From a virus: a stretch of DNA of 39,489 bases. Made by a program: the position numbers and the translations under genes. Under the pieces are notes generated by a model. The model had not been told where the DNA came from. It worked only from the letters and a program-made list of their open reading frames with translations, and did not search any database. The DNA is taken from UHGV virus genome UHGV-0206207; one strand, given 5' to 3'. Below, piece by piece: positions 23,507 through 39,489 of this stretch (its first letter is position 1; every line of letters starts with the position of its first letter).

Positions 23507-23635
23507 GCAAAAGCACCCATCTCTGGATGCTAAGAATTTAGGACTACTGCTATGAAAATTACAAACGCCAACAAAAACCAAAATAACCAAGTACACAAAC
23601 AATTTATAAGAAAAGGAGCTTGCAGTAGTCCACAA

Positions 23636-23708
23636 CGGGTATAGTAGGACTCGAACCTACGACACATCGGTTAACAGCCGATTGCTCTACCAACTGAGCT
23701 ATACACCC
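23636..23708 (-). tRNA. tRNA-Asn (anticodon GTT)
   Basis: Minus-strand sequence GGGTGTATAGCTCAGTTGGTAGAGCAATCGGCTGTTAACCGATGTGTCGTAGGTTCGAGTCCTACTATACCCG folds as a 73-nt cloverleaf. It has a 7-bp acceptor stem, GCTC/GAGC D-stem, ATCGG/CCGAT anticodon stem with loop CTGTTAA, GTAGG/CCTAC T-stem with TTCGAGT loop, and discriminator G. CCA is not encoded. Confidence 0.85.
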
Positions 23709-23906
23709 ACAGGATGCCGTCTGACATCCTTTACCCTATCCGCGCTCGGGTGCGCTGATTACACTAAATATAGACATATTGTCTACTTGTTTGTTCTGGC
23801 AGATCTGCGGATATCTGCGTTTTGGTACCATTTGCGATGTAAAGCCGGTGTGCACTCCCTACAGCACCCCCCCCCAGCTGGTAAGCCGCAAACCTTACAT
23901 CACAAA

Positions 23907-35782: not shown

Positions 35783-36116
35783 GCTTGTCCTCCCTTCTAC
35801 CGCCTAAGCGGTTTTTCTTCTTTCGAATCCTATATTTTTCATTGTCTCGTCTAATTTTTTCTCCAAAATCTGAGAAAATTCTTCTTTACTTAAGTCCTCT
35901 TGGTTTACCCAGGATCCATTAATCTTGATCATGCTTACTACTTCGATTCCTTTCATTTCACCACCTCTCTACTATGTATGAATTATTGGTTGTCTGTGTT
36001 ACAATCCATATGTGCTGCCATCGCAACCTCCATGGCGGGATTGCTTTCTTTTGGTTTATCTCCTATACTGTAATTACCGAGTGCCAGTCGGAATATTACG
36101 AAAGGAGAACAACAAA

Positions 36117-36593
36117 ATGGGAATATATAAAACTGCTCAAATATGCTTAAACGGTCATGTGATTACAACAAATATAGAAAACCATAAACAACCTTACTGC
36201 TCAAAATGCGGAGCTGAGACAATAACCCATTGTCAAAATTGCGGAGAGCATATTCAAGGCAGATATTTGATCGACGGCGTTCTATCTCTTAATAAGTCGC
36301 AATACATTACACCTTCATACTGTCACTCATGCGGTAATCCGTATCCGTGGACTGAAAAGATCTTGAACAACGCTACCGAACTTCTATCTCTTGACGAAGA
36401 ACTTGACTCTAGTACAAAAGAATTGATTAAAAATGCAATTCCGAATCTATTAGTTGATACGCCAGAAACTCCTATATCCGTTGCGAATTACCGTAATGGA
36501 ATGAGCAAGGCTGGTCAAATTGTTAAGGATTCTATGTTTCAGTTACTTTCAAATGTTTTGAGCGAAACTATCAAAAACGTTCTTTTTCATTAG
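36117..36593 (+). CDS. zinc-ribbon protein (DUF2321-like), oriented opposite to the early operon
   Basis: Start MGIYKT with AAAGGAGAA as RBS. It has three CxxCG pairs (CSKCGAE, CQNCGEH, CHSCGNP). The gene is AT-rich. Confidence 0.55.
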   Translation: MGIYKTAQICLNGHVITTNIENHKQPYCSKCGAETITHCQNCGEHIQGRYLIDGVLSLNKSQYITPSYCHSCGNPYPWTEKILNNATELLSLDEELDSSTKELIKNAIPNLLVDTPETPISVANYRNGMSKAGQIVKDSMFQLLSNVLSETIKNVLFH

Positions 36594-36761
36594 GACATCC
36601 ACAATATTGACAATATTTGTTTGAACTGTGTATTAAATTTTTGCACCGAGCGCAATGAATGAAGTTTTCGTATTTTAATAAGTATTCGTTGCGCTCTTCT
36701 TGCATCATTGTTGTGCTATCATTTCCTTCATGCTTTATGTGTCCTATTCTCTCTCACCTTC

Positions 36762-36947
36762 CTACTCCAAAAAATACTCAACACTTACGCCGAAGTAATC
36801 GGCTAAGACTTTTAGTTTTTCTACTTTCGGCTTGCTTCTACCTGTTTTCCAGTCTGTAAAAGTAGACTTCGTAATTCCTGTATCAGAAGCAACTCTGTAA
36901 TCCGTAATTTCTTTCGAATCACGCAACTCTGCATATTTTTCGTACAT
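36762..36947 (-). CDS. Cro-like XRE-family HTH regulator that heads the early lytic operon
   Basis: 61 aa with HTH TGITKSTFTDWKTGRSKP. GAGGTG is the RBS. It is a truncated paralogue of the repressor N-domain (~60% identity on eye alignment). Confidence 0.75.
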   Translation of the reverse strand: MYEKYAELRDSKEITDYRVASDTGITKSTFTDWKTGRSKPKVEKLKVLADYFGVSVEYFLE

Positions 36948-37132
36948 TTTTTCACCTCTTTTCCGAACTTTCTATTGATTTTAGTTCGGAAATCAGTTAC
37001 AATATATTTACCAGATACATTGACAAAGAATTGCGCTACAATTCTGTTTTGATTTCCGAACTTTGTAGCTTTATTATAGTGCGGATTTCAGAACTTGTCA
37101 ATACTTTTTTGTACTGATTTCAGAATTTTTTT
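36948..37132. promoter_or_regulatory. divergent promoter/operator region of the lysis-lysogeny switch
   Basis: Operator O1 is TTTCCGAACT-13-AGTTCGGAAA (36959-36993). Operator O2 is TTTCCGAACT-13-AGTgCGGAtt (37053-37087). There are extra half-sites TTTCAGAACT (37086) and TTTCAGAAT (37118). The candidate repressor promoter is TTGATT(37049)-17-TATTAT(37072). The candidate cro promoter on the minus strand is TTGTCA(37026-21)-16-TATTGT. Confidence 0.55.
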
Positions 37133-37144
37133 ATGAGGTGTATT

Positions 37145-37561
37145 ATGTATGAAATTTATTGCAAGTTAAGAGATGAAAAAGGATGTAAAGATGCGGATGT
37201 TGCGAAAGCTACTGGTATAACTAAGTCTACTTTTTCTGATTGGAAGAATGGGCGAAGTAAACCAAAAGATGAGAAGCTTACTAAGATAGCTGATTACTTC
37301 GATGTACCATTAACATATTTCTATGAGGAACATAGGGATAATGCAGCATCATTGACAACGAGAGATGAGCGTGACATTTCCAAGACAGTAAATGACTTAA
37401 TGGAAAAATTGGAAGCAAAAGATGGGGCACCACTGTTTTTCGACGGTACTGAAATGAGCCCAGAAACAAAAATTTTATTCGAACAGCAATTAAAGTCATT
37501 AGTAACTACTGTTAAGGAAATCAACAAGGTCAAGTTTAATCCGAACAAAAATAAAAAGTAG
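37145..37561 (+). CDS. XRE-family phage repressor (CI/ImmR-like); start at MYEIYCKL
   Basis: N-terminal HTH TGITKSTFSDWKNGRSKP plus a ~75-aa C-terminal extension. AGGTG is the RBS. It is translationally coupled to the downstream ImmA-like gene. Confidence 0.75.
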   Translation: MYEIYCKLRDEKGCKDADVAKATGITKSTFSDWKNGRSKPKDEKLTKIADYFDVPLTYFYEEHRDNAASLTTRDERDISKTVNDLMEKLEAKDGAPLFFDGTEMSPETKILFEQQLKSLVTTVKEINKVKFNPNKNKK

Positions 37562-38002
37562 GTGATTACCTTGAAGCAAGATGTAAAAACAATAGTGAAC
37601 AATTTAATAAGTAAATACGGCACAAGAAACCCTTATGAATTATGTGATTACACAAATACAATTTATCAAATATGCGATATCGGTGATGTATTAGGTTGCT
37701 ACTTACTTATTAAAAGACAAAAATGCATTATGCTAAACAAAAAAATAATAGGAACTCCAATGGAGAAATTTATTTTGAGTCACGAATTGGGACATTCTCA
37801 ATTACACAGAAAAAATGATTGCTATTTCTACGGAAGCACATTGTTTTCTAAGCTCAAAGAAGAAAACGAAGCCAACACATTCGCCGCAGAACTTCTGATA
37901 CCAGATTCTCTCATCTATGAGAATCCGGGCATGACAAAAAGCCAGATTGCAAGACTAGCTGGATATGATGCAAAGATTATGGAGTTTAAAAGCGTATTGT
38001 AA
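37562..38002 (+). CDS. ImmA/IrrE-family HExxH metallopeptidase (anti-repressor protease)
   Basis: SHELGHSQLH is the HExxH motif. ~146 aa, immediately downstream of the XRE repressor, which is the ImmR/ImmA arrangement. GTG or TTG start. Confidence 0.8.
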   Translation: MITLKQDVKTIVNNLISKYGTRNPYELCDYTNTIYQICDIGDVLGCYLLIKRQKCIMLNKKIIGTPMEKFILSHELGHSQLHRKNDCYFYGSTLFSKLKEENEANTFAAELLIPDSLIYENPGMTKSQIARLAGYDAKIMEFKSVL

Positions 38003-38059
38003 TTCCTATATAAAAAAACACCTTTTATCGAACTGGTGTTTTTATAGGAGATGTTTTTT

Positions 38060-38938
38060 ATGACTGTACATAAGATGATAAAATTTTATGTTTTAGAACC
38101 AGAACCTTGTTGGTCTGTAAATGGCTTAAATTCAGATAATCTTAATTTAGCAACCTATACCATTTTTAAATCCGCTTTTCCGCAAATAGATTTTTATGAT
38201 ATGGAATTTGAAAAAAAGAAATTATTTTTTGACATAAAAGAGTATGACGATAAAAAAATGTTTGGAACTTGCTCTACCGATGAAACTATAAGAGCAACAA
38301 GTTTTGTACAGAAAAGAAATAAGCTGACTAAAGAAGCTGTTCCATACACTACTGTCGAAAGCGGGGAGCAATTAGAAGCATATACCTTTTTTTATATAGA
38401 TTTCGTCCATAATCGAATGGCAGTAATTGCGAACAAAAAAATATCAAAAATTCATGAGGCCTTACGTCAATTCATTTGGGAAAAATCTGGAAATATGTCC
38501 GAAATACACATTTTTCCAGAAATGATAGAAGATATCAGACAAGAAGCCAGTTCTATACTAAATCCATCTTGGATTGAAATGGAATTTGCTAAGCCGAACT
38601 GCATGGATGACATTCCAACTGTAAAAGAATCCCTAGGTTCTGATTTTCAAGCAAGAAAATTTAAAATAAAAATCAAGTTAGAAGAAAAACATAATCCAAA
38701 TCTGATAGAGAGGATGATAGCAATAAAAAATAATTCCACGCGGGAAGATATTCCATTATTAAAATTATATGGAAAAAATGAGTTGGGAGTTGATGAAACT
38801 CTAAATTTTATTGAATCTGTGTACACAAAAACAGTACCACTGGAATTAACCGATAGTACTGTTACGAATATAGAATATATTAAAAAAGAGTTAGAAAGAT
38901 TTTTAGGCTATCATTTAGGAAAAATTGCTAAGCACTAA
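38060..38938 (+). CDS. hypothetical AT-rich protein at the lysogeny end; candidate lysogenic-conversion or defence gene
   Basis: ~293 aa starting from MTVHKMIKF, with GGAG 9 nt upstream. It is AT-rich compared with the phage core and shows no recognisable motif. Confidence 0.5.
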   Translation: MTVHKMIKFYVLEPEPCWSVNGLNSDNLNLATYTIFKSAFPQIDFYDMEFEKKKLFFDIKEYDDKKMFGTCSTDETIRATSFVQKRNKLTKEAVPYTTVESGEQLEAYTFFYIDFVHNRMAVIANKKISKIHEALRQFIWEKSGNMSEIHIFPEMIEDIRQEASSILNPSWIEMEFAKPNCMDDIPTVKESLGSDFQARKFKIKIKLEEKHNPNLIERMIAIKNNSTREDIPLLKLYGKNELGVDETLNFIESVYTKTVPLELTDSTVTNIEYIKKELERFLGYHLGKIAKH

Positions 38939-39328
38939 AATATAGTAACCCGTAATAAGCATATTCGCTAAGCCTGCGCAAAACAGGCAAATAACAATGG
39001 AATAACAATTTGTAAACAACCAAATCAACAAAGCAACACTTAAAAGTATAATTCCTGCGCAGATATTGCTTAACAAAATATGATTATGCCCTGTCTTTTT
39101 CATTCTTTGTTTTACAGTATCGTTTTTAGGAAATGATAAATAAATCGTAAGTACCGTTAAGAATATTCCTACTATAGATATTATAATCCCTATCAACGCA
39201 TCCATTTTCTTTTCTGGTACTTTCGAAAGTAACCCATACTTGTTATCTATCACTGACAACAACATAAAGGAAAGTATTGGAAAAATTATAGCTGAATGAT
39301 ATTTTATTTTACTTTTTAATTTTTTCAT
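38915..39328 (-). CDS. polytopic membrane protein (about 4 TM segments); candidate superinfection-exclusion protein
   Basis: Start MKKLKSKIK with AGGTGGTG as RBS. It has four hydrophobic helices, is AT-rich and converges on the previous gene. Confidence 0.5.
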   Translation of the reverse strand: MKKLKSKIKYHSAIIFPILSFMLLSVIDNKYGLLSKVPEKKMDALIGIIISIVGIFLTVLTIYLSFPKNDTVKQRMKKTGHNHILLSNICAGIILLSVALLIWLFTNCYSIVICLFCAGLANMLITGYYILVLSNFS

Positions 39329-39489
39329 AACTACACCACCTTGTATTTTCATTATATAGATATTTTATTATTTTGCAATGACTCGAACATATATTTTGCA
39401 AATTTCAAGATGGTTTTAAAATGATATAACCGCTTCGGCGTTTATATAGAGTAAAGTGGTGTTAAGGTACAGGAGGAAAGAGGAAAAAC

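Follow-up and report, generated by a model that had tools for sequence, protein, structure and literature searches.

The virus genome UHGV-0206207 was analysed as a single window of 39,489 nucleotides (39.5 kb), which represents an essentially complete temperate phage. At positions 36762-38002 of this window, two divergent genes for helix-turn-helix (HTH) proteins and an adjoining metalloprotease gene make up what we read as the lysis-lysogeny (immunity) switch of a temperate Lachnospiraceae siphophage of ~39 kb; to this working model as a whole, we assign a probability of roughly 0.68. The three genes are the following.

36762-36947, minus strand: Cro-like gene, 61 amino acids (aa), an HTH_3 domain only (Pfam HTH_3, E = 8.7e-09)
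37145-37561, plus strand: repressor gene, 138 aa from the conserved MYEIY start (Pfam HTH_3, E = 4.5e-12)
37562-38002, plus strand: ImmA/IrrE-family metalloprotease gene, 146 aa, or 143 aa from TTG 37571

The Cro-like gene opens the minus-strand early operon and is separated by 197 bp from the divergent repressor gene, the longest open reading frame (ORF) of which begins at 37133. The repressor gene ends with a stop codon at 37559-61, and the protease gene abuts it, with a Shine-Dalgarno sequence that overlaps the stop. Because this sequence, AGGTG at 37560-64, overlaps the repressor stop codon, TTG 37571 is the probable start of the protease gene.

The Cro-like protein and the DNA-binding domain of the repressor are homologous. 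The 61 aa of the former align without gaps with residues 1-61 of the latter, with 39 of the 61 positions identical (64%; BLASTP E = 2e-25). An earlier note on this DNA had claimed that the two proteins match almost position for position, and the formal alignment bears this out. The same note described the small regulator as a truncated paralogue of the repressor that retains the DNA-binding domain alone. The paralogy stands, both proteins being HTH_3 members at 64% identity, but the recent event implied by this description does not, given that the duplication precedes the diversification of the family. Nucleotide identity between the two domains is 62%, third codon positions agree in only 25 of 61 cases (41%), and different codons are used at 20 of the 39 conserved residues.

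The age of the duplication becomes apparent from relatives. A scan of IMG/VR with the repressor yielded 80 loci, 74 of which encode a short HTH protein divergently from the repressor, and these contain 36 unique protein pairs. Identity within the pairs ranges from 36 to 66% (n = 36). Of the 72 domains, 71 are closest to a domain with the same role, none has its partner from the same locus as nearest neighbour, and mean identity is 0.66 between Cro-like proteins, 0.69 between repressors and 0.54 across the two roles. The lineages are also set apart by two diagnostic positions in helix 2, namely, position 18 (R in the Cro-like proteins, D in the repressors) and position 22 (D and A, respectively). 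A recent duplication or gene conversion of the repressor DNA-binding domain was considered and rejected on account of the 41% identity at third positions, the 20 of 39 differing codons and the clustering by role. Since third codon positions have diverged and the domains cluster by role rather than by locus, the duplication is old. Judged by these alignments, the Cro/repressor paralogy is ancient, with two role-specific lineages that extend across the family.

The region between the two divergent genes contains four putative operators and three predicted promoters.

36960-36992, extending to 36995, palindrome: putative operator O1, TTTCCGAACT-N13-AGTTCGGAAA(TCA), a perfect 10+13+10 inverted repeat
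36975-37003, plus strand: P1, predicted lysogenic promoter, TTGATT-17-TACAAT, with O1R in the spacer and a predicted start at ~37010, reading towards the repressor gene
37049-37077, plus strand: P2, alternative promoter-like site, TTGATT-17-TATTAT, 9/12, overlapping the PL -10 element
37051-37062, plus strand: putative half-site O2, GATTTCCGAACT, at ~+4 to +15 of the predicted lytic transcript, a conserved block among 17 intergenic regions
37073-37101, minus strand: PL, predicted early-lytic promoter, TTGACA-17-TATAAT, a perfect 12/12 consensus, reading towards cro
37084-37095, plus strand: putative half-site O3, GATTTCAGAACT, within the 17-bp PL spacer
37116-37127, plus strand: putative half-site O4, GATTTCAGAATT, upstream of the PL -35 element, the most degenerate site in relatives

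We infer a common half-site of 12-14 bp, (C/T)(G/T)GATTTC(C/A)GAAYT, that is predicted to be present in five copies, two of them inverted (O1) and three direct. The window has three exact copies of the decamer TTTCCGAACT, which fall within 103 bp (36960-69, plus strand; 36983-92, minus strand; 37053-62, plus strand), with a one-mismatch copy at 37086-95, and four exact copies of the 12-mer GATTTCNGAAYT, all of them inside 36983-37127 (145 bp). Elsewhere in the 39.5-kb genome, no distal operators were found, only one-mismatch matches at chance frequency, and a repeat search of the intergenic region did not detect a second repeat family. O1 abuts the Shine-Dalgarno sequence of cro (36952-36958) and spans the -35 element and spacer of P1; its palindrome, with N13 or N14, is kept in 28 of the 29 scorable unique loci. 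By contrast with O1, the sites O2, O3 and O4 are direct repeats, spaced by 33 and 32 bp, that is, by about three helical turns. O2 and O3 are 33 bp apart in 22 of 29 loci, and O3 and O4 are 31-33 bp apart in 28 of 29.

This layout differs in part from that proposed in the earlier note, namely, two 33-bp palindromic operators about 93 bp apart, or roughly nine helical turns, together with two degenerate half-sites. O1 is indeed a perfect palindrome, and the distance from O1L to O2 is 93 bp in the window. A second 33-bp palindrome at O2 was rejected: the partner of 37053-62 matches at only 3 of 10 positions at N13, and the N15 partner (37078-87, AGTGCGGATT), which matches at 7 of 10, is the conserved 5' extension (CGGAT) of O3. 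O2 is accordingly a single half-site, and O3 and O4 form direct repeats with it at 33/32 bp. The O1-O2 distance ranges from 78 to 95 bp in relatives, except for 120 bp in the distant locus L081, with no helical phasing; because of this range, the nine turns carry no weight, and a role of the distance in helical phasing or looping is not supported.

The predicted cro leader RNA (36940-37066, minus-strand transcript) folds with z = -3.7. In it, the 13-nt O2 half-site pairs perfectly with O1R (an inverted repeat, 54 nt apart), and an alternative O1R-O1L stem of 10 bp lies directly upstream of the cro Shine-Dalgarno sequence. This pairing may be a by-product of the operator arrangement or a leader structure.

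The two proteins appear to be matched in their DNA specificity. In the AlphaFold2 model, the recognition helix comprises residues 27-34, where the Cro-like protein has KSTFTDWK and the repressor KSTFSDWK, so that one of the eight residues differs. Identity across residues 23-33 is 0.881 within loci compared to 0.819 for permuted pairs, and none of 10,000 permutations reaches the observed value, in a test that takes no account of the relatedness among the loci. Furthermore, loci in which both proteins have SQS, AQS, SP/SN or SP/HP at the start of the helix possess correspondingly different half-sites at the same positions (CTACGGAAAT, CTTCGGAAAT, TTAAGGAAAT and TTGGGAAAT, respectively, compared to GTTCGGAAAT in the window). 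Because the near-identical recognition helices co-vary both within loci and with the half-sites, the Cro-like protein very probably reads the half-sites of the repressor. This co-variation follows the pattern described for lambdoid Cro and CI, in which specificity is closer to that of the protein's own partner than to that of the orthologues (PMC6649833).

The expectation that both proteins should recognise the same half-sites is thus well supported by the helices, which are one residue apart and co-vary with the half-sites across the 36 loci. The contrast that had been drawn with a distinct Cro specificity was mistaken, since lambdoid Cro and CI share operators (PMC7498355), and for the same reason competition at shared operators is the textbook mechanism. 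An alternative is that the Cro-like protein is mainly an antirepressor that complexes with the repressor's N-terminal domain, like MOR with CI in TP901-1 and phi13, and does not compete for DNA. Small HTH proteins that bind the N-terminal domain of a repressor are documented (PMC11149083), and the homology of the two domains makes an HTH-HTH interface conceivable. However, the recognition helix of the Cro lineage is as conserved as that of the repressor and co-varies with the half-site, as expected of a DNA binder but not of a pure protein binder. The perfect palindrome O1 would suit a small protein that dimerises on DNA, and the Cro-like protein is devoid of the helical C-terminal region that serves as the oligomerisation part according to the AlphaFold2 model and the solved relatives. 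We consider a predominant antirepressor role improbable. Heterodimer poisoning, which the earlier note had offered alongside competition, has a precedent in CI:MOR of TP901-1 (PMC11149083) but is unsupported in the window. In the Cro lineage, the recognition helix has stayed conserved and co-varies, and the locus has retained a perfect palindrome that would fit a small dimer.

The predicted promoters are arranged in an unusual order. PL adjoins the repressor gene but points at cro, and P1 adjoins cro but points at the repressor gene. The predicted start of PL, at ~37066, gives a leader of ~119 nt that runs through P1 and O1, and the two promoters are oriented towards each other, with 55 bp between their predicted start sites (in relatives, 38-83 bp across 35 loci, with the mode at 55-56). 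Both promoters are recurrent among the relatives. PL has a 17-bp spacer in 35 of the 36 unique loci, mostly with a 12/12 score; a P1-like match (8-11/12) is present in all 36, with a 17-bp spacer in 35, the automated match in L072 being a different, 18-bp site, and P1 holds in distant loci with a different half-site sequence. In nearly all of the 36 unique loci, each promoter has in its spacer a half-site, and the orientation of this half-site with respect to the promoter is the same for both (the PL spacer in the window, on the promoter strand, is AGTTCTGAAATCCGCAC), and in the alignment of 17 diverse intergenic regions, the conserved blocks fall exactly at the promoter and operator elements, with a variable stretch in between. 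The face-to-face position of P1 and PL implies that transcription from either promoter has to pass through the other one. This predicted layout, in which both convergent promoters contain the shared half-site, is conserved across the family and may be distinctive.

A different arrangement, overlapping divergent promoters, would result if the repressor gene were transcribed from P2. The -10 elements of P2 and PL overlap, so that binding of RNA polymerase to the two would be mutually exclusive, and P1 would be inactive or would produce a short antisense RNA against the cro leader. P2 matches the consensus at 9 of 12 positions in the window and is present in 28 of the 36 loci, and in some loci a hairpin of 6-8 bp followed by TTTTG, between P1 and O2, could stop P1 transcripts. 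On the other side, the -35 element of P2 is part of O2 and its -10 element is the complement of the PL -10 element, so P2 could be a by-product of these sites; it is missing from the more divergent loci L001, L002, L024, L027, L075, L026 and L072, in contrast to the P1-like site, which is present in all 36; and the hairpin is not conserved (mean z -0.16 across 25 loci, not significant). Transcription of the repressor gene from P2 thus appears doubtful, and P1 facing PL is the preferred arrangement. A further candidate, an ATG-proximal promoter for a leaderless repressor transcript (TTGTAC-17-TATGAG, 37109-37137), lacks the invariant T, is not conserved and was discarded.

A scan of the window for an intrinsic terminator or attenuator found none in the stretch that separates the convergent promoters. 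This stretch has a 7-bp hairpin on the P1 strand at 37027-37050, AGAATTG...CAATTCT, followed by GTTTTGATTT; similar hairpins with other sequences are found in L015, L016, L028 and L041 but not in most loci.

The product of the third gene is an ImmA-type protease. It matches Pfam Peptidase_M78 (PF06114, ImmA/IrrE) with 42.6 bits against a cut-off of 22, its translation contains the motifs HELGH and EENEANTFAAELLIP (EENEANxFAxxLLxP), and it matches the PHROG metallo-protease family (E = 6e-22) and the PADLOC CapP model (E = 1e-13); in NCBIfam, no model reaches its cut-off. The previously noticed HExxH protease gene after the repressor gene is therefore confirmed by the M78 domain, the HELGH motif and the abutting position. 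The 138-aa repressor itself has no S24 autocleavage domain detectable by Pfam. In its AlphaFold2 model (mean pLDDT 81), an HTH bundle (1-60) is followed by a flexible linker of low confidence (61-71) and by two helices (72-91 and 106-130) that are joined by a conserved loop, GAPLFFDGTEM, and precede a basic tail; these motifs are conserved among homologues. The best solved relatives are the phi106 AimC repressor (9sf2), DdrO, a substrate of IrrE, and SinR, and the modelled architecture resembles those of ImmR, SinR and AimC. In ImmR, ImmA cuts between the two C-terminal helices (PMC8960796), and a protease antirepressor gene just 3' of the repressor gene is typical of temperate phages (PMC6872733). 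An ImmA homologue follows the window-type repressor C-terminus in 26 of the 27 loci with sufficient downstream sequence, compared to 0 of 50 with other C-termini. Given the M78 domain, the adjacency with the overlapping Shine-Dalgarno sequence, the absence of S24 in the Pfam search and this co-occurrence, the ImmA-type protease likely triggers de-repression, as the earlier note had presumed.

The HTH protein and the M78 protease could alternatively form a stress regulator of the 295-aa orphan ORF downstream (a CapH/CapP-like pair) or a toxin-antitoxin-like pair, with induction taking place by another route. The match of the protease to the CapP model and the position of the unannotatable 295-aa ORF, behind the protease gene on the same strand, are in line with such a role. 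However, the divergent cro junction offers no repressor candidate other than the HTH protein, and the putative operators there sit on a consensus early promoter; dozens of phage genomes have the HTH/M78 pair in synteny with cro but differ in the downstream gene (in phiRgPS_6, a beta-sandwich protein and then the integrase); and some relatives have exchanged the ImmA-linked C-terminus for an S24 autoprotease, the classical induction sensor. A function of the pair outside the immunity switch is very improbable.

The exchange of the C-terminus takes several forms. The relative L081 (2501-3178) has a LexA-like Peptidase_S24 domain in place of the window-type C-terminus, L029 (2501-3256) has a 251-aa form of the repressor and L045 (2501-3257) a 125-aa form that overlaps an unrelated 135-aa gene, which contains YEHAMSH and has no Pfam match. 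All three keep the same DNA-binding domain, the Cro-like gene and the promoter/operator layout. Because the same DNA-binding domain, cro and operators occur with different C-termini, the induction sensor looks like an exchangeable module, with ImmA coupled to the window-type C-terminus. The converse combination was observed among database repressors: P0026, P0032, P0037 and P0068 have another type of HTH (e.g., SQSTL helices) and a near-identical window-type C-terminus, which indicates recombination at the inter-domain linker.

Taken together, these features suggest a working scheme for the switch, of which we infer all the binding, the promoter activity, the cleavage and the order of events. 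In the lysogen, the oligomeric repressor would occupy O2-O3-O4 on one face of the helix and shut PL, and it would also be able to bind O1, allowing for autoregulation of P1 and for a block of the leaky PL transcript. Upon DNA damage or another signal, ImmA would cut the C-terminal region of the repressor, probably in the loop between the two helices, whereupon cooperative binding would be lost and PL would fire. The Cro-like protein would bind best to O1, the only true palindrome, and repress P1; convergent transcription from the strong PL would add interference and, combined with the repression of P1, would lead to lytic commitment.

Several points weigh against this scheme and the working model behind it. 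P1 scores only 9/12 in the window, and P2 could be the real promoter of the repressor gene. The permutation test on shared specificity leaves the relatedness among the loci out of account, and the differences in helix 2 (R18/D22 compared to D18/A22) could give the two proteins different site preferences. One HTH protein would have to read half-sites that are inverted at 23 bp and yet direct at 32-33 bp, and a cleavage site in the repressor is not recognisable by sequence.

The rest of the genome conforms to a temperate phage. A serine recombinase/integrase is encoded at 665-2101, and the structural and replication genes form a long minus-strand block that runs down from the Cro-like gene. No identical deposited phage was found. 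Among deposited phages, the DNA matches are patchy and come from phages of Ruminococcus (Mediterraneibacter) gnavus and Anaerostipes; the best match, in an unannotated faecal contig, has 89% identity over 32% of a 25-kb query. The phage phiRgPS_6, which has been shown to lysogenise its host (PMC10072058), has the same layout, with divergent HTH genes of 61 and 142 aa, the latter followed by an M78-like gene, one gene for the beta-sandwich protein and the integrase.

Several other genes were observed around the switch. Directly 3' of the ImmA gene, the 295-aa ORF (38051-38938, plus strand) is followed by a convergent 145-aa ORF (38915-39352, minus strand) that overlaps its end and, judged by eye from the translation, looks hydrophobic. 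Neither the 295-aa ORF nor the 145-aa membrane ORF has a match in Pfam, PHROG, NCBIfam or PADLOC; the two occupy the position where prophages often have lysogenic-conversion or exclusion genes. On the other side of cro, a gene for a DUF2321 zinc-ribbon protein (E = 1e-50; 36012-36593, plus strand) lies inside the otherwise minus-strand early operon, and its end overlaps by 23 bp a 45-aa zinc-ribbon ORF (36571-36708, minus strand). R. gnavus phages match this region at 86% identity, and their neighbouring gene has been given the annotation antirepressor. Farther away, there is a gene for tRNA-Asn (GTT) at 23635-23709 (minus strand); a matching tRNA-Asn is annotated in phiRM10 and in Bacillus phage Mater.

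The family to which this switch belongs is large. The repressor has 1018 homologous clusters at E <= 1e-5, and those with a name belong to Anaerobutyricum, Alitiscatomonas and Clostridium. Among representative genomes, those of 17 species (L083-L099) contain the exact O1 palindrome, TTTCCGAACT-N12-15-AGTTCGGAAATCAG. These species represent seven or more named genera of Lachnospiraceae, among them Mediterraneibacter, Lachnoclostridium, Alitiscatomonas, Anaerosporobacter, Bariatricus, Faecalicatena and Hungatella, along with unnamed Lachnospiraceae. In 16 of the 17 genomes, the Cro-like/repressor pair lies at the flanks of the palindrome. From the identity of O1 across genera, cross-genus homoimmunity is predicted. 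It is tempting to view all this as one uncharacterised switch design that is common to temperate phages of many Lachnospiraceae genera and joins an ancient CI/Cro pair of lambdoid-like shared specificity, a plug-in sensor at the C-terminal end of the repressor (a helical region cut by ImmA, an S24 autoprotease or another module) and a cross-genus immunity group. This joint reading is tentative, and we place it somewhat below even odds.

The value of the locus lies in the entry point that it provides to the switch of a prophage family of gut Lachnospiraceae that is very large and experimentally untouched and whose hosts include relatives of Mediterraneibacter gnavus that are linked to inflammatory bowel disease (IBD). 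If the predicted geometry is true, the family would be a natural test of transcriptional interference combined with competition at shared operators, and it would offer compact parts (a 200-bp control region, two small proteins and one protease) for engineering or inducing prophages of gut commensals. The cross-immunity that is predicted for phages of different hosts is relevant to manipulating the microbiome with phages.

The components are those of an ordinary phage immunity region, that is, Cro/CI paralogy of the 434 kind and a sensor of the ImmR/ImmA kind, both of which are already established. Lambdoid Cro and CI share operators, are regarded as paralogues and are transcribed from back-to-back promoters (PMC7498355; PMC6649833), and in phage 434, Cro is a displaced duplicate of the cI DNA-binding domain (PMC6649833). 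The window resembles these systems in that Cro and the repressor's N-terminal domain are helical HTH domains, homologous to each other and encoded by adjacent divergent genes, with operators that are probably shared. Unlike the displacement event in 434, the duplication in the window is old and has given rise to two role-specific lineages. There are three further differences from the lambdoid phages: the repressor is without the S24 autocleavage domain (that of lambdoid phages being RecA-stimulated), the predicted promoters converge in contrast to the back-to-back PR and PRM, and the operators comprise one wide palindrome and three direct repeats instead of three palindromes of 14-17 bp.

The repressor and protease are most similar in organisation to ImmR/ImmA of ICEBs1, Listeria MpaR, Deinococcus DdrO/IrrE and CapH/CapP, in which a short Xre-type repressor with a helical C-terminus is followed by a COG2856/M78 HExxH protease; with ImmR/ImmA, the window also shares the repressor-then-protease gene order on the lysogenic strand. 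The sequence similarity to solved or curated members of these pairs is confined to domains. In ICEBs1, the divergent neighbour of immR is xis and not a Cro paralogue.

Two other Gram-positive systems offer partial parallels. Like TP901-1 and phi13, in which the CI-MOR pair operates, the window is from a temperate phage of Gram-positive bacteria and encodes a small HTH protein divergently from an HTH repressor with an oligomerising C-terminus; MOR acts through a CI:MOR complex (PMC11149083, PMC7250872), whereas the pattern of conservation in the present family points to DNA binding. The phi106 AimC protein (9sf2) is the closest solved structure (sequence E = 3.5e-05, top Foldseek match) and is likewise a short HTH repressor; it oligomerises through a helical region, and its divergent gene is cro-like (bioRxiv 10.1101/2025.11.23.689978); in phi105, the repressor binds multiple asymmetric operators (PMC1934351), which parallel the direct-repeat half-sites of the window. 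However, identity to AimC is only ~24%, AimC is inactivated by the small antirepressor AimX and not by a protease, and there is no arbitrium module in the window.

The promoter geometry has its counterpart in the P2-like phages, in which lytic and lysogenic promoters lie face-to-face, 40-60 bp apart (PMC7498355). The window resembles P2 and 186 both in the predicted facing promoters, with a modal gap of 55-56 bp, and in an immunity repressor that is predicted to bind direct repeats over the lytic promoter. The hosts and the protein families are unrelated, and the lytic regulators differ: Cox and Apl are unrelated to the repressor, have operators of their own and also function as excisionases (PMC7498355), whereas the lytic regulator in the window is a paralogue of the repressor domain with a near-identical recognition helix. 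As far as the predicted elements go, the window thus appears to combine the promoter geometry of P2/186 with the shared-operator logic of the lambdoid phages.

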